From positions 10,478,001-10,542,000 of the forward strand of contig NC_086097.1 of NCBI RefSeq assembly GCF_963921235.1: a stretch of 64,000 bases of DNA, read 5' to 3'. Positions 31,371 through 54,456 of this stretch are shown here, in pieces (within the stretch, counting starts at the first letter, position 1; every line of letters starts with the position of its first letter). This DNA comes from Mobula hypostoma (lineage: Eukaryota). A program made the translations under genes and the position numbers. The notes beneath the pieces were generated by a model that saw nothing but the letters and a program-made list of their open reading frames with translations, was not told the DNA's origin and did not search any database.

Positions 31371-32264
31371 AACTTCATTTCACAATTATTTATTGCATTA
31401 TCTGTGTTTCCATTTCTAATTTTCCTCCATCTGTCCATTAATCAGATGACCTCTACAACTATTTCTGAAACAATCCTGACATCACTCTGTCAGAGATGTT
31501 TCCTTAATTCATCCTTCGCTTCCCATCCTTCTAGAACCTTAAATCCCTTCTACAATGCGGAACAAAAATCTTCAACCCAATACGTTAGTTCAATCTCTCT
31601 TTCCTCAACTGAATCTTTCCAGAATTTCAGCATTGATTTCAGATTTTCAGGCACCTGCAGCTTGTTTGTTTGTTTTTTCCAATACCAGTGTGGGGTTGAG
31701 AGATTGGAGAGAAATAGTTATCAGACTTCAACAGAATTACAGTTCATTTTAGTGCTGTGTCATTATCAATAAAGGGTCGTAATAAGGCTCAAGAGAAAGA
31801 AATTGCAAATCGAATAAGTTTCTGATTTAATGCAGTCACAGCTAACAATGCAACTTCTAAAATCTTCTCCAACCCATTCAATGTTAGATGTACACAAAGA
31901 AATTAGAAAAAAAGAGCCATAAGCATTGTGTAATATTCAATAAAACAATATTATGGAAGATCACTTTGTCAGCGACAACAGTAATGCCTTTCTCTTTTTA
32001 CAACACCAGACATCTAGGAAATCCATCTTTCATAAACACATTCAAAATCCCTTTATTTATTTAACCAGAACAAATAGGTTATTGAATCAACCACCCTGAA
32101 AGTACAGCTGCTAAATGGTAGATTAAAATTGAGAACTATGTTCTCAAATAAACACTGGTGAAGACAGACTACCCAGTAAAATGAAACACAGAGTATAACA
32201 GGCTACATACATCAAAGTTGCTGGTGAACGCAGCAGGCCAAGCAGCATCTATAGGCAGAGGTGC

Positions 32265-32300
32265 AGTCGACGTTTCAGGCCGAGACCCTTCGTCAGGACT
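32265..32300 (-). ncRNA. Minimal type-I hammerhead ribozyme motif
   Basis: Reverse complement AGTC CTGACGA AGGGTCTCGGCCT GAAA CG TC GACT: conserved core, stem I AGTC/GACT, GUC cleavage triplet. Confidence 0.8.
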
Positions 32301-32599
32301 AACTGAAGGAAGAGTGAGTAAGGGATTTGAAAGCTGGAGGGGGAGGGGGAGATGCAAAATGATAGGAGAAGACAGGAGGGGGAGGGATAGAGCCGAGAGC
32401 TGGACAGGTGATAGGCAAAAGGGGATACGAGAGGATCATGGGACAGGAGGTCCGGGAAAAAGACAAGGGGGTGGGGGGGGTGACCCAGAGGATGGGCAAG
32501 AGGTATATTCAGAGGGACAGAGGGAGAAAAAGGAGAGTGAGAGAAAGAATGTGTGCATAAAAATGAGTAACAGATGGGGTACGAGGGGGAGGTGGGGCC

Positions 32600-34252
32600 T
32601 TAGCAGAAGTTAGAGAAGTCAATGTTCATGCCATCAGGTTGGAGGCTACCCAGACGGAATATAAGGTATTGTTCCTCCAACCTGAGTGTGGCTTCATCTT
32701 TACAGTAGAGGAGGCCGTGGATAGACATGTCAGAATGGGAATGGGATGTGGAATTAAAATGTGTGGCCACTGGGAGATCCTGCTTTCTCTGGCAGACAGA
32801 GCGTAGATGTTCAGCAAAGCGGTCTCCCAGTCTGCGTCGGGTCTCACCAATATATAAAAGGCCACATCGGGAGCACCGGACACAGTATATCACCCCAGTC
32901 GACTCACAGGTGAAGTGATGCCTCACCTGGAAGGACTGTTTGGGGCCCTGAATGGTGGTAAGGGAGGAAGTGTAAGGGCATGTGTAGCACTTGTTCCGCT
33001 TACACGGATAAGTGCCAGGAGGGAGATCAGTGGGGAGGGATGGGGGGGACGAATGGACAAGGGAGTTGTGTAGGGAGCGATCCCTGCGGAATGCAGAGAG
33101 AGGGGGGAAGGGAAAGATGTGCTTAGTGGTGGGATCCCGTTGGAGGTGGCGGAAGTTAAGGAGAATAATATGTTGGACCCGGAGGCTGGTGGGGTGGTAG
33201 GTGAGGACCAGGGGAACCCTATTCCTAGTGGGGTGGTGGGAGGATGGAGTGAGAGCAGATGTACGTGAAATGGGGGAGATGCGTTTAAGAGCAGAGTTGA
33301 TAGTGGAGGAAGGGAAGCCCCTTTCTTTAAAAAATGAAGACATCTCCCTCGTCCTAGAATGAAAAGCCTCATCCTGAGAGCAGATGCGGTGGAGACGGAG
33401 GAATTGCGAGAAGGGGATGGCGTTTTTGCAAGAGACAGGGTGAGAAGAGGAATAGTCCAGATAGCTGTGAGAGTCAGTAGGCTTATAGTAGACATCAGTG
33501 GATAAGCTGTCTCCAGAGACAGAGACGGAAAGATCTAGAAAGGGGAGGGAGGTGTCGGAAATGGACCAGGTAAACTTGAGGGCAGGGTGAAAGTTGGAGG
33601 CAAAGTTAATAAAGTCAACGAGTTCTGCATGCGTGCAGGAAGCAGCACCAATGCAGTCGTCGATGTAGCGAAGGAAAAGTGGGGGACAGATACCAGAATA
33701 GGCACGGAACATAGATTGTTCCACAAACCCAACAAAAAGGCAGGCATAGCTAGGACCCATACGGGTGCCCATAGCTACACCTTTAGTTTGGAGGAAATGG
33801 GAGGAGCAAAAGGAGAAATTATTAAGAGTAAGGACTAATTCCGCTAGACGGAGCAGAGTGGTGGTAGAGGGGAACTGATTAGGTCTGGAATCCAAAAAGA
33901 AGCGTAGAGCTTTGAGACCTTCCTGATGGGGGATGGAAGTATATAAGGACTGGACATCCATGGTGAAAATAAAGCGGTGGGGGCCAGGGAACTTAAAATC
34001 ATCGAAAAGTTTAAGAGCGTGAGAAGTGTCACGAACATAGGTCAGAAGGGATTGAACAAGGGGGGATAAAACAGTGTCGAGGTATGCAGAAACGAGTTCG
34101 GTGGGGCAGGAGCAAGCTGAGACAATAGGTCGGCCAGGACAGGCAGGTTTGTGGATCTTGGGTAGGAGGTAGAAACGGGAAGTGCAGGGTGTGGGAACTA
34201 TAAGGTTGGTAGCAGTGGATGGGAGATCCCCTGAGCGGATAAAATCGGTGAT
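32600..34252 (-). CDS. PLE polyprotein (partial): reverse transcriptase, Cys linker, GIY-YIG endonuclease
   Basis: The frame stays open 97 codons upstream of the annotated Met (FYLLPKIHK..GRPIVS). Motifs DVQSLYTSI, GVAMGT, RYIDD, FLDL, CKRNKCYTC and VIYCVRCSRCGLLYIGET..R..EH. Confidence 0.9.
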   Translation of the reverse strand: MTDFIRSGDLPSTATNLIVPTPCTSRFYLLPKIHKPACPGRPIVSACSCPTELVSAYLDTVLSPLVQSLLTYVRDTSHALKLFDDFKFPGPHRFIFTMDVQSLYTSIPHQEGLKALRFFLDSRPNQFPSTTTLLRLAELVLTLNNFSFCSSHFLQTKGVAMGTRMGPSYACLFVGFVEQSMFRAYSGICPPLFLRYIDDCIGAASCTHAELVDFINFASNFHPALKFTWSISDTSLPFLDLSVSVSGDSLSTDVYYKPTDSHSYLDYSSSHPVSCKNAIPFSQFLRLHRICSQDEAFHSRTREMSSFFKERGFPSSTINSALKRISPISRTSALTPSSHHPTRNRVPLVLTYHPTSLRVQHIILLNFRHLQRDPTTKHIFPFPPLSAFRRDRSLHNSLVHSSPPSLPTDLPPGTYPCKRNKCYTCPYTSSLTTIQGPKQSFQVRHHFTCESTGVIYCVRCSRCGLLYIGETRRRLGDRFAEHLRSVCQRKQDLPVATHFNSTSHSHSDMSIHGLLYCKDEATLRLEEQYLIFRLGSLQPDGMNIDFSNFC

Positions 34253-34654
34253 AGGCTCCTATCTTTATTCAATTTCAACTTCCCATCTGCACATTGGGCT
34301 CCCCATGAGAGCTTCCACAAAGATAAAGAGAATGTGGTTAACTTGTCACTGTAATTTGAAAGATTCAGTAGGGCAAGTCCCTTAATTGTTTCAAAAGTAG
34401 AGCTGCCCACACACCAAGTTTATGGATGAGGGGGACACAAAGGAAAACCCCACAAAAAAAGTCAGGATGGAGATCTGAAATGGAATGTGGATTGCACAGG
34501 GAAGGTTAACATAGAACATAGAACAGTACAGCCCTTTGTCCCACAGTATTGTGCCGAACCAATTAAATTAATTATCAAATGGCTGACTAAACTAATCTTT
34601 TCTGCCTATACAATGTCCATATCCTCACATTCATGTGCCTGTCTAAACATCTCT

Positions 34655-34797
34655 TAAAAGACCTGATGAGGGGTCTCTGCCCGAAACATCAGCTGTTTAC
34701 ACGTTTCCATCGATGCTGCCTGGCCTTCTGGGATCCTCCAACGTTTTGTGTGTGTTGCTCAGATTTCCAGCATCTGCAGATTTCCTCTTGTTTATGA
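34655..34797 (+). mobile_element. PLE 3' fragment with hammerhead core
   Basis: CTGATGA (34663-69) GGGGTCTCTGCCC GAAAC ATC, then PLE terminal 'ttccagcatctgcagatttcctc'. Confidence 0.75.
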
Positions 34798-35944: not shown

Positions 35945-37906
35945 TTCAAGAGCCGTCTTTTGTTGAGGTGCAGAACAAAATTCTTACATCACCTCAGGTG
36001 ACAAGGCAGCCCTAACAACAGCGAGGGCCAAACTGTCCCGGGCCATAAGAGAGGCGAAGCGTGCACACTCCCAGCGAATCGACAGCCACTTCCAGGACAG
36101 CTGCGACACGCAGCACATGTGGAAGGACATTCAGGACATCACCATCTACAAGACAACACCCACCTGCCTGTGCTGGTGATGCCTCCCTCCCAGATGCTTT
36201 GCATAACTTGTACACTCGTTTTGAGACAGAAAATGACGTGCCGGCAAGGAAGACCACCCCTCCTCCAAACGACCAGGTGCTGTGTCTTACCGTGGCCGAT
36301 GTGAGGAGAACCCTGTGCAGGGTCAACCCACGGAAGGCTGCTGGACCAGACAATATTCCTGGCAGAGTGCTTAGAGGATGTGCAGACCAGCTAGCTGAAA
36401 TTCTCACTGACATCTTCAAATCTCCCTGAGCAGCGCCGTCGTTCCAACGTGCTTCAAGGCCGCCACCATCGTTCCTGTGCCGAAGAAGTCTTCAGTAGCC
36501 TCAACGACTACCGTCCCATCGCACTCACATCCATCATCATGAAGTGTTTCGAGAGGCTCATCATGAAGCACATCAAGACCCTGCTGCCCCCCTCACTGGA
36601 CCCCCTGCAGTTCGCGTACCGTCCCAACCGTTCAACAGACAATCCCATTGCCATCACCCTCCACCTGGCCCTAACCCACCTGGACAAAAAGACACGTACG
36701 TTCGAATGCTGTTCATAGACTTCATTTCAGCATTCAACACAATCATTCCTCAGAAACTGATTGGTAAGCTGAGCCTACTGGGCCTGAACACCTCCCTCTG
36801 CAACTGGATCTTAGACTTCCCGACTGGGAGACCTCAGTCAGTCCGGAGTGGAAGCAGCATCTCCGACACCATCACACTGAGCACAGGGGCCCCCCAGAGC
36901 TGTGTGCTCAGTCCACTGCTGTTCACTCTGCTGACCCACGACTGTGCTGCAACACACAGCTCGAACCACATCATCAAGTTCGCCGATGACATGACCGTGG
37001 TGGGTCTCATCAGCAAGAACGATGATCAGCATACAGAGAGGAGGTGCAGCGGCTAACGGACTGGTGCAGAGCCAACAACCTGTCTCTGAATATGAACAAA
37101 AAAAAAGAGATGGTTGTTGACTTCAGGAGGACACGGAGCGACCACTCTCCACTGAACATCGACAACTTCTCTGCAGAGATCGTTAAGATCAACAAATTTT
37201 TTGGTGTTCACCTGGCAGAGAATCTCACTTGATCCCTCAACACCAGCTCCATAGCAAAGAAAGCCCAGCAGCATCTCTACTTTCTGCGAAGGCTGAGAAA
37301 AGTCCATCTCCCACCCCCCATCCTCACCACATTCTACAGAGGCTGTAGTGAGAGCATCCTGAGCAGCTGCATCACTGCCTGGTTCAGAAATTGCACCATC
37401 TCAGATCGCAAGACCCTGCAGTGGATAGTGAGGTCAGCTGAGAAGATCATTGGGGTCTCTTTTCCCGCTATTACAGACATTTACACCACACGCTGCATCC
37501 ATAAATCAAACAGCATTATGAAGGACCCTACGCACCCCTCATACAAACTCTTCTCCCTCCTGCCATCTGGCAAAAGGCACCAAAGTATTCGGGCTCTCAC
37601 AACCAGACTAACAGTTTCTTCCCCCAAGCCATCAGACTCCTCAATACCCAGACCCTGGACTGACACCAACCTACTGTGCCTATTGTCTTTTTTTTTATTT
37701 ATTGTAATGCCTGCACTGTTTTGTGCACTTTATGCAGTCCTGGGTAGGTCTGTAGTCTAGTGTAGTTTTGTGTTGTTTTACATAGTTCAGTGTAGTTTTT
37801 GAATTATTCATGTTGCACCATGGTCCTGAAAAATATTGTCTCATTTTAACTGTGTACTATACCAGCAGTTATGGTCGAAATGACAATAAGAAGTGACTTG
37901 ACTTGA
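35945..37906 (+). mobile_element. Rex1/Babar LINE, 5'-truncated, frameshifted RT
   Basis: [74 protein letters not shown] plus (GACTT)n tail. Confidence 0.92.
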
Positions 37907-45075: not shown

Positions 45076-45803
45076 GTTCATATTGGCCTCTTTCAATTCT
45101 ATGCTTTTTTCATGTCCTTGCCCAGTCTTTCTTGTTGCCAATTGGTGGATTGGGGGTTTAGGTGCTCTGTTAGTTTTTGTGTGAGGGAGGGGTTGGGGTT
45201 GGTGAGTTAAGGGATGTTAGGAGTGCATTGGGAGAAAGTTCTAGAGAGAGTTTGGTGACAGCAGTGTGGTTCGCAAGTCTTTTTGTGAGAGCAGACAGGA
45301 GGGAAGATGGCTGAACATGCTTTGGGAGGCATCGTCCCCGTTGCATGATGTGCTTTATACTGATGAATGGCTTCAAGGAGGAAGAGCCAATACTCCCAAG
45401 AGTAACACTCTCAAAAAATGCTGGTGAACGCAGCAGGCCAGGCAGCATCTATAGGAAGAGGTACAGTTGACGTTTCAGGCCGAGACCCTTCGTCAGGACT
45501 AACTGAAAGACTCCCAAGAGTGAGCCTATTTTTTTTGAGATGTATTTCAATTGAAGATCAGTGGGTCCAACATGTGAGTAAAATGACAACTCCAGGATAA
45601 GCTCCAAGTTATGTGTGACATTTTGACATCAATTCTCACTCCCCTTGCACAAAAAGAAAAATAAACTAAAGCTCACCAACCCCAACCCCTCCCTCACACA
45701 AAAACTAACAGAGCACCCAAACCCCCAATCCACCAATTGGCAACAAGAAAGACTGGGCAAGGACATGAAAAAAAGCATTGAATTGAAAGAGGCCAATATG
45801 AAC
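45076..45803. repeat. ~131-bp near-perfect inverted repeat (45076-45206 / 45672-45803)
   Basis: Manual alignment gives 2 substitutions and a 1-base homopolymer indel. Confidence 0.9.
45404..45509 (-). mobile_element. 106-bp PLE fragment containing the hammerhead motif (45465-45500)
   Basis: Nearly identical to 32218-32307. Perfect 12-bp TSD actcccaagagt (45392-45403 / 45510-45521). Confidence 0.88.
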
Positions 45804-53996: not shown

Positions 53997-54456
53997 AACA
54001 CGAAGAATTCTGCAGATGCCTCCAACCTGATGGCATGAACATTGACTTCTCTAACTTCCGCTAATGCCCCACCTCCCCCTCATACCCCATCCGTTATTTA
54101 TTTATATACACACATTCTTTCTCTCTCTCCTTTTTCTCCCTCTGTCCCTCTGACTATACCCCTTGCCCATCCTCTGGGTTTCCCCCCCTCCCCCTTTTCC
54201 TTCTCCCTGGGCCTCCTGTCCCATGATCCTCTCATATCCCTTTTGCCAATCACCTGTCCAGCTCTTGGCTCCATCCCTCCCCCTCCTGTCTTCTCCCATC
54301 ATTTTGGATCTCCCCCTCCCCCTCCCACTTTCAAATCTCTTACTAGCTCTTCCTTCAGTTAGTCCTGACGAAGGGTCCCGACCCGAAACGTCAACTGTAC
54401 CTCTTCCTAGAGATGCTGCCTGGCCTGCTGCGTTCCCCAGCAACTTTAATGAGTGT
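53997..54456 (+). mobile_element. PLE 3' end with inverted terminal tip at its 5' junction
   Basis: Encodes LQPDGMNIDFSNFR* like the end of the 32600 ORF. Preceded by inverted 'aacacgaagaattctgcagatgc'. TSD atacttctccgct (53984-96) / atacttctctgct (54457-69). Confidence 0.9.
54361..54396 (+). ncRNA. Minimal hammerhead ribozyme motif
   Basis: AGTC CTGACGA AGGGTCCCGACCC GAAA CG TC AACT. Stem II GGGTC/GACCC; one stem-I mismatch. Confidence 0.7.

Follow-up and report, generated by a model that had tools for sequence, protein, structure and literature searches.

The window analysed here, meaning the whole 64,000-nucleotide stretch of the Mobula hypostoma genome (assembly GCF_963921235.1, contig NC_086097.1, positions 10,478,001 to 10,542,000 of the forward strand), carries on its minus strand a fragment of a Penelope-like element (PLE) and, after the open reading frame (ORF) of this fragment, a 36 nt sequence with the layout of a minimal type-I hammerhead ribozyme. 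Three shorter PLE copies are found elsewhere in the window. The features are as follows, with position 1 as the first letter of the window:

32195-34300, minus strand: PLE fragment, first copy, 2.1 kb, bearing the motif at 32265..32300
32600..34258, minus strand: 5′-truncated PLE ORF of 552 amino acids with reverse transcriptase (RT) and GIY-YIG domains (Pfam, homologues, tblastn)
32301..32599, minus strand: 3′ untranslated part of the PLE repeat (pLTR), from the stop codon to the hammerhead (homologous stretch in other copies)
32265..32300, minus strand: minimal type-I hammerhead, 36 nt (direct read, covariance model match and helix covariation)
32205..32264, minus strand: short-type 3′ insertion end, where the element goes on 64 nt beyond the predicted cut and then ends
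34658..34795, plus strand: fourth copy, ~140 bp, old and decayed, of a diverged subfamily (weak model match)
45419..45507, minus strand: second copy, 89 bp, 95.5% identical, 5′-truncated, with its hammerhead at 45465-45500
54018..54451, plus strand: third copy, 438 bp, 90% identical, its start lying within the final 47 nt of the ORF, with its hammerhead at 54361-54396

Pfam analysis of the 552-amino acid frame identified RVT_1 (25.1 bits, E 1.7e-5) followed by GIY-YIG (20.8 bits, E 4.9e-4), both slightly below the curated cut-offs. Of 8,000 candidates that were scored, 1,186 proved to be homologues of the frame at E<=1e-10; the best-matching named homologues come from two ray species (95-78% identity), and unnamed proteins of 800-900 amino acids match at ~50-56% identity. 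With seven full-length relatives as tblastn queries, the window frame aligned to approximately residues 340-887 of ~890, the C-terminal 60% of the protein, and no N-terminal part of a PLE protein was detected anywhere in the window. Judging from these protein matches, the element beside the motif is a 5′-truncated insertion of an endonuclease-bearing PLE. Truncation at the 5′ end is shared by all four copies in the window; the fourth copy is cut short just ahead of its hammerhead, has a long tail, and lies on the opposite strand, 400 nt past the point at which the PLE ORF is truncated on its 5′ side. The stop codon of the ORF is at 32602-32600, and the distance from stop to motif, given as 300 nt in the initial annotation, was measured as 299 nt.

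Direct reading of the minus strand from 32300 to 32265 gave AGTCCTGACGAAGGGTCTCGGCCTGAAACGTCGACT, which is made up of the following parts:

32300-32297, minus strand: 5′ strand of helix I, AGUC
32296-32290, minus strand: C3-A9 box, CUGACGA
32289, minus strand: unpaired A between A9 and G10.1
32288-32285, minus strand: 5′ strand of helix II, GGGU
32284-32281, minus strand: loop, CUCG
32280-32277, minus strand: 3′ strand of helix II, GCCU
32276-32273, minus strand: G12-A13-A14-A15.1, GAAA
32272-32271, minus strand: C15.2-G16.2
32270-32269, minus strand: U16.1-C17
between 32269 and 32268, minus strand: predicted cut (GUC site)
32268-32265, minus strand: 3′ strand of helix I, GACU

The general hammerhead core is complete in the window copy, comprising C3-A9, G12-A13-A14, the A15.1-U16.1 pair and H17, and the CUGANGA, GAAA and GUC boxes and the AGUC/GACU stem I described in the initial annotation were read exactly as claimed. 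Its stem II is also present, as GGGU/GCCU, but the A that follows CUGACGA, which had been taken as the first base of that stem, is unpaired; in an alignment of PLE hammerheads (A2) this A is found in 10/10 rows, with C as the opposite base in 9/10. Helix I consists of 4 bp, and helix II of 4 bp capped by a tetraloop and closed by the wobble pair G10.1-U11.1 rather than by G-C. The description of stem III as ACGU alone, self-complementary and lacking a loop, proved accurate: C15.2 adjoins G16.2 directly, so helix III cannot close within one motif, and A15.1-C15.2-G16.2-U16.1 forms a palindrome. In the second copy, G1.1 of helix I is changed to A, a CpG-type change, and in the third copy helix II is fully Watson-Crick (GGGU/ACCC, with C11.1 and A11.4), both of its changes preserving pairing.

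Hammerhead ribozymes are represented in Rfam by the families Hammerhead_1, Hammerhead_3, Hammerhead_II, HH9 and HH10. No Rfam family matched at gathering score over the whole window, and no hammerhead family matched at E<=10 over positions 31800-32800; a helix III is expected by these models. The initial annotation had proposed a search with a minimal-hammerhead model, and a covariance model (R1) was built from 10 motifs located beside PLE ORFs on metagenome contigs, excluding any sequence of the Mobula hypostoma genome. This model matched the window copy at 32264-32301 on the minus strand with 33.8 bits (E 1.4e-6), the third copy with 36.1 bits (E 3.5e-7) and the second with 28 bits (E 5.1e-5). 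The decayed fourth copy scored 14.8 bits (E 0.17), and the next unrelated match in the window had an E value of 0.77.

The motif is far more frequent than expected by chance, both in the window and in the genome. The pattern CTGANGA-N(4-30)-GAAACGTC occurred 3 times in the window, compared to 0.01 expected from 100 shuffles, and the 36-mer with <=3 mismatches occurred twice, compared to 0.00 expected. In the 3.48-Gb assembly, a 28-nt core with <=2 mismatches was found 110,559 times (55,313 + 55,246 on the two strands), and its reversed control 0 + 0 times. The descriptor CTGANGA-N13-GAAANNTH gave 158,103 core-intact motifs (78,860 + 79,243), a density of ~1 per 22 kb of genome; its reversed control gave 1,588 (780 + 808), ~1% of the genome count. 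In a hand tally of the first 100 genome matches by position, 35 had exactly the sequence of the window copy, with U11.1, and 6 differed from it only in having C11.1; most of the remaining differences were C-to-T or G-to-A at the motif's four CpGs. A CpG is also formed by C11.1-G12, and U11.1 is the product expected from its deamination. Since the U11.1 form is the commonest and has all other CpGs intact, it appears to represent the master that was amplified last. Other hammerhead-like families with a longer helix II are also present in the genome, some with inverted partners, and no recognisable PLE ORF was seen beside them in the fetched loci. One group among them (L056/57) is devoid of the palindrome and looks like a chance match.

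Conservation of the motif was examined both within the family and between PLE lineages. The within-family sample consisted of 51 copies picked by their ORF alone, and the 36 nt motif equalled the majority sequence in 33 of these, whereas 1-2 changes were present in the other 18, and several of these changes fell within the core. Non-CpG singletons amounted to 4/1,427 in the motif versus 94/17,272 in the flanks (p=0.25), and shared-variant columns numbered 1/28 versus 23/339 (p=1.0); the motif is thus not significantly better kept than its flanks among these copies of a young family. A difference in raw cell counts (0.42% versus 1.48-2.63%) was gone after shared variants had been separated from singletons. 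Comparison of five old copies with a young copy showed 78-84% identity in the motif and 77-84% in the tail, and identity in the 3′ untranslated region was lower than in the motif, at 72-75% in the three old copies that reach that far.

The comparison between lineages drew on 80 metagenome contigs whose encoded proteins are related to the ORF at 42-62% amino acid identity. An exact-core minimal hammerhead was located 100-151 nt past the ORF in 11 of the 22 relatives having an ORF end and >=350 nt of downstream sequence, and a stricter descriptor applied to 251 kb of the metagenome contigs found 11 motifs in sense and 3 in antisense orientation, versus 0.0 in 20 shuffles. Core columns (CUGA, GA, GAAA and the U of GUC) are invariant in 10/10 aligned PLE hammerheads, and C15.2-G16.2 is present in 10/10 rows of alignment A2. 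G10.1-C11.1 occurs in all eight foreign rows and in the third copy of the window, with only the main variant of the window differing. The sequences of helices I and II vary between lineages. In alignment A3, the rows of which were chosen by core alone, 89.8% of cells were paired compared to 69.3% after shuffling (0/500 shuffles reached the observed value) and 9-51% with a slid partner strand, and 6/8 pairs had changes on both sides. The corresponding values for A2, in which 3 rows had been pre-filtered for pairing, were 93.8% and 57.7%. Helices I and II clearly covary across PLE lineages, and the evidence for selection on the motif is of this between-lineage kind.

A foreign PLE protein used as query against the genome gave 51 scored matches, 47 of them uninterrupted by an internal stop codon and with open frames of up to 1,043 amino acids, and from these sequences the family still looks young. 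Six copies have the maximal 1,043-amino acid frame: the upstream motif is intact in four of them (L033, L037, L103 and L104) and has U16.1 changed in L102, and L035 begins inside the motif. Motifs in direct orientation lie on both sides of the ORF in L033, L037, L103, L104 and L107, whereas the window copy, being 5′-truncated, has the 3′-side motif only. In L033 and L037, one motif is located 85 nt ahead of the open frame and a second 300 nt after the stop codon, with a spacing of 3,516 nt, and the upstream cut site in full-length copies is ~60 nt ahead of the first ATG. The upstream repeat of L037 is the end of a preceding 5′-truncated unit that starts at about unit position 2,198; in L033 the preceding partial unit starts at ~2,955, and inverted copies lie before it. 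The family has the partial-tandem pLTR-ORF-pLTR structure described for PLEs. The tandem pLTRs invoked in the initial annotation are accordingly present in full-length copies of the family, but not at the locus itself, where the copy is 5′-truncated and no partner motif was found on its strand within 13 kb, the nearest same-strand motif being 13.2 kb off. Assignment to a non-LTR retrozyme, made up of ORF-less tandem units, was rejected on this distance and on the contiguity of the motif with the PLE ORF. At another locus (L060), two same-strand motifs 460 nt apart proved to belong to separate PLE insertions, both truncated and each from a different subfamily. The solitary window copy is most likely inert, with a low chance of doing anything.

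Short copies of the family begin at many different positions, and many of them adjoin, in head-to-head arrangement, a copy of inverted orientation. The 3′ ends of 38 copies were bimodal, with 21 ending at +50 to +76 (mode 65-69) and 17 at +101 to +117 (mode 102-104) after the cut site, and the extra ~40 nt of the long-type ends are the first part of the following unit's ORF. The window copy, which stops at 32205, belongs to the short type; its last stretch, at 32205..32264, is the sequence that in full-length copies forms the 5′ leader running into the ATG. Assembled contigs from four public runs leave the window sequence at 32205, with the repeat present and depth dropping toward the 5′ side; the 22 public runs in which the sequence occurs all consist of assembled contigs, their type unrecorded and their RNA label a guess, from which starts and ends are not readable. 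The RNA fold of the tail was not more stable than that of shuffled sequences (z -0.29). All insertions run past the cut site, and copies longer than one unit retain the internal motif. No insertion ends at the 3′ cut or short of it, so the template RNA would have been still uncut at the 3′ motif, with RT starting internally.

Taken together, the motif can with good confidence be described as a copy of the minimal hammerhead ribozyme of PLE terminal repeats, here in the 3′ repeat of a dead, 5′-truncated insertion. Its homology to the minimal hammerheads of PLEs, considered separately, is very likely. The identity proposed in the initial annotation is in agreement with this, being supported by the RT and GIY-YIG ORF, the flanking motifs in full-length copies and the R1 match. 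Whether members of the family cleave as dimers in vivo is an evenly balanced question, and the initial annotation went too far in speaking of an obligate dimer and of processing of the element RNA, both of which are putative for the ray element. In the proposed mechanism, a master copy would be transcribed as a longer-than-unit RNA with two motifs, and two motifs, in the same RNA or in two RNAs, would pair ACGU with ACGU into a 4-bp helix III. Each half, consisting of CUGACGA, helix II and GAA, would receive from the other motif its U16.1-C17 (GUC) strand and its 3′ strand of helix I; strand topology through the three-way junction implies that in such a dimer helix I would be intermolecular, like helix III. 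A cut after C17 would leave a 2′,3′-cyclic phosphate and a 5′-OH, and at the upstream motif it would trim the RNA to the 60-nt leader. Reverse transcription would start internally on RNA uncut at the 3′ motif, as occurs in vitro for the Poseidon PLE of Anolis carolinensis (PAc), so that cleavage would be a side or late step rather than the maker of the cDNA template.

Predicted folding energies were -9.5 kcal/mol for the double hammerhead, versus -20.0 kcal/mol for two inactive hairpins, in which G5-A6-C7-G8 is paired with C15.2-G16.2-U16.1-C17, and -28.3 kcal/mol for an extended duplex. These nearest-neighbour energies disfavour the active dimer fold, in line with reports that dimer constructs of PLE minimal hammerheads have low activity in vitro (PMC4209133) and with the protein dependence of PAc cleavage. 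The same calculation bears on an alternative that we consider fairly unlikely, namely that the motif is mainly a structured RNA or protein-binding hairpin, for instance one recognised by the PLE protein near the internal RT start, and that self-cleavage is dispensable or vestigial here. The minimum-energy fold is indeed a plain hairpin that buries G5-G8, the most amplified variant in the hand tally carries G10.1-U11.1, insertions pass the cut site and longer-than-unit copies keep internal motifs, and tail blocks are kept as well as the motif in old copies; in addition, PAc hammerhead mutants insert normally in vitro, where PAc cleavage needed protein (PMC11167929). However, the unpaired core bases are invariant across PLE lineages at ~50% protein divergence and the helices covary, and a plain hairpin would not need these bases. 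Published PLE hammerheads, moreover, cleave as dimers or with protein (PMC4209133, PMC6765202, PMC11167929).

A quite unlikely reading keeps the ribozyme active but dispenses with the obligate dimer: the element protein, or a chaperone of the host, would keep a single motif in the active fold, and the role of helix III would fall to stacking and the one A15.1-U16.1 pair. This would fit the PAc result, in which cleavage was seen only when protein was added to RNA with one motif, and the low in vitro activity reported for dimer constructs. The 500 nM RNA of the PAc assay nevertheless leaves room for dimers in trans; C15.2 and G16.2 are joined without a loop, making a helix III in cis sterically impossible; and the 15.2-16.2 palindrome is kept in 10/10 A2 rows and in the published alignments, selection of a kind that a dimer predicts. 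A chance look-alike in a repeat, unrelated to hammerheads by descent, would account for the absence of an Rfam hammerhead match, but is refuted by the chance counts in the window (3 versus 0.01), the genome reversed control at 1% of the count, the same position relative to PLE ORFs on unrelated contigs, and the match of an independent covariance model.

For the preferred reading, a PLE minimal hammerhead, one further proposal can be made, to which we give little credence. The ray lineage would perhaps hold one of the largest vertebrate hammerhead populations, of at least 158,000 core-intact motifs, in which cleavage serves outside the making of cDNA template, for example by trimming read-through transcripts to a 60-nt translation leader, and dispersed motifs might pair within host transcripts. 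Tolerance of G10.1-U11.1, insertions that extend past the cut and the retention of internal motifs would, under this proposal, mean that cleavage is not part of cDNA-template making.

That PLEs carry minimal hammerheads proposed to cleave as dimers, which the initial annotation gives as known, is indeed published (PMC4209133 and PMC6765202), and the association is at most unreported for cartilaginous fishes. No paper pairing a hammerhead ribozyme with an elasmobranch was found, with the qualification that file 1 of the supplement to PMC4209133 and the supplements of a 2026 preprint may list cartilaginous-fish motifs, and a literature search on hammerhead ribozymes and Penelope-like elements in sharks found only one irrelevant review. 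The locus is a clean example of the known association, in a vertebrate group for which no description was found. It leaves knowledge of this kind of element unchanged, and its added value lies in a very large young family and in the evidence for a template uncut at the 3′ motif. An abundant, young-looking family of this kind is a potential system for settling the role of the ribozyme in the PLE life cycle.

The closest known systems are the minimal hammerheads in the pLTRs of metazoan PLEs, for which Cervera and De la Peña (2014) proposed the dimer model (PMC4209133). The ray motif shares with these the core boxes and the unpaired nucleotide between A9 and G10.1, the absence of helix III and loop 3, the palindromic C15.2-G16.2 and a helix I of 4-5 bp. 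It also shares their arrangement, with directly oriented motifs, one in each flanking repeat, numerous solitary copies left by truncated elements, opposite-strand pairs 100-700 bp apart and thousands of copies per genome (PMC4209133). Fish and lamprey rows in the published alignment have the same ...GAAA-C-G-U-C arrangement (PMC4209133). The ray motif differs in its host, as cartilaginous fish are absent from the text and from the one supplement file searched (PMC4209133), and in helix II, which is 4 bp with a tetraloop here and 7-8 bp in the Schistosoma motifs (PMC4209133). G10.1-C11.1 is highly conserved in PLE minimal hammerheads, without being defining, whereas the commonest variant here has G10.1-U11.1 (PMC4209133). 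The 158,103 core-intact copies far exceed the ~4,000 reported in coelacanth and the ~9,000 in Xenopus (PMC4209133).

Two other systems share traits with the ray motif. In the double hammerheads of newt satellite RNAs and viroids (Forster et al. 1988, as cited in PMC6155905 and PMC6765202), helix III is likewise too weak to close in one motif, and cleavage takes place once two motifs have joined in an extended helix III. In those RNAs a small loop caps a short helix III, and there are loop-loop tertiary contacts, whereas the ray motif lacks both a recognisable loop 1 and any helix III residue outside the core. Non-LTR retrozymes are tandem small repeats with type-I hammerheads and circular RNAs (PMC7229834), and tandem retrozymes are reported in one sampled chondrichthyan (10.64898/2026.07.22.740005). 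Their type-I hammerheads are related to those of PLE pLTRs, a likeness shared by the ray motif, but the window copy belongs to an ORF-bearing PLE fragment and not to a short tandem unit.

A biochemically studied counterpart is PAc, described by Frangieh et al. (2024; PMC11167929). Like the ray family, PAc has a repetitive pLTR-ORF-pLTR locus with a hammerhead beside the ORF start. The PAc ORF starts within the hammerhead and the cut falls 26 bp after the start codon, unlike the ray element, in which the cut is ~60 nt before the first ATG. Hammerhead mutants of PAc were without effect on in vitro insertion, RNA-seq revealed no ends at the cut, and cleavage was observed only with protein added to one-motif RNA at 500 nM (PMC11167929). 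PAc has an optional 30-40-bp tail and two internal RT start sites, a two-end pattern that implies internal RT initiation on uncut RNA (PMC11167929). The ray family likewise has two alternative insertion ends and an optional ~40-bp tail, which follows the hammerhead and belongs to the beginning of the next unit; its ends are ~65 and ~103 nt past the cut, the second being ~45 nt into the ORF, compared to 111-118 bp into the ORF in PAc (PMC11167929). Two discrete ends beyond the cut, together with the internal motifs retained in longer copies, independently support the internal-initiation model derived from Anolis, and the same genomic record argues against cleavage defining the 3′ end of the template.

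Head-to-head pairs of the minimal type-I hammerhead motif, with the minus-strand motif first and the plus-strand motif second at a spacing of 46-1,200 bp, were found in large numbers in the sequence of the same genome (G000 C1), with the following examples:

G000 C1 109236/109307, (-)/(+), head-to-head motif pair
G000 C1 3655564/3655612, (-)/(+), head-to-head motif pair
G000 C1 4659454/4659500, (-)/(+), head-to-head motif pair
Fetched loci L001, L002, L018 and L027, head-to-head motif pairs

Each pair is made up of two 5′-truncated Penelope-like element (PLE) copies joined 5′ end to 5′ end, and in one pair the junction falls within the hammerhead itself. Head-to-head joining of truncated copies is a known trait of PLEs, and the frequency of such pairs in this genome is high. 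Long perfect hairpins are expected in RNA reading through them. A different arrangement was seen at L060 (G000 C1:5927000-5929500), where two motifs lie on one strand, 460 nt apart, in a head-to-tail pair of 5′-truncated copies from different subfamilies (98.7% and 90.5% identity to the full-length copy L033). The second L060 copy begins exactly at the end of the first copy's short tail, which suggests insertion at or beside the end of a pre-existing PLE copy.

Two blocks of the element tail, 3′ of the predicted cut site, are nearly invariant, even in PLE copies that are ~75-80% diverged elsewhere, and their conservation equals or exceeds that of the hammerhead. The first is centred around ATAGATGCTGCCTGGCCTGCTG and the second around TTTCCAGCATCTGCAGA, and they lie in the following regions:

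Window 32205-32255, (-), element tail
L037:4026-4130 (full-length copy), long-tail part

The predicted RNA fold of the tail region is no more stable than that of shuffled sequences, and the blocks may be sites of protein recognition or of reverse-transcription start.

For a single motif (window 32265-32300, minus strand), the fold predicted to have the lowest energy is a simple hairpin with base pairing between G5-A6-C7-G8 and C15.2-G16.2-U16.1-C17. This complementarity is almost inherent to any minimal hammerhead, due to the presence of C15.2-G16.2, and the modelled pairing may represent an off-state. Further hammerhead-like families on G000 C1 share the layout but have a longer helix II (6-7 bp) and an additional U or A following A9, with GAAA-CG-UY later in the motif, for example:

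G000 C1 4663980(+), 7365445(-) and 5005163(+), loci L045-L049
G000 C1 605054(-) and 5252021(-), loci L050-L053

These families are old and decayed, some with inverted partners, and no adjoining PLE ORF was found in the fetched loci.

Just past the truncated 5′ end of the window PLE copy, the ORF list contains a series of overlapping open frames (window 36049-37760, plus strand) resembling a disrupted reverse transcriptase from a different retroelement, one that is not a PLE. The PLE protein itself (window 32600-34258, minus strand) shares 50-62% identity with relatives on contigs of many host-associated metagenomes and with named coral, sea urchin and mollusc proteins. This is unusually close for hosts so distant, and the PLE clade that includes the ray protein may have spread horizontally.
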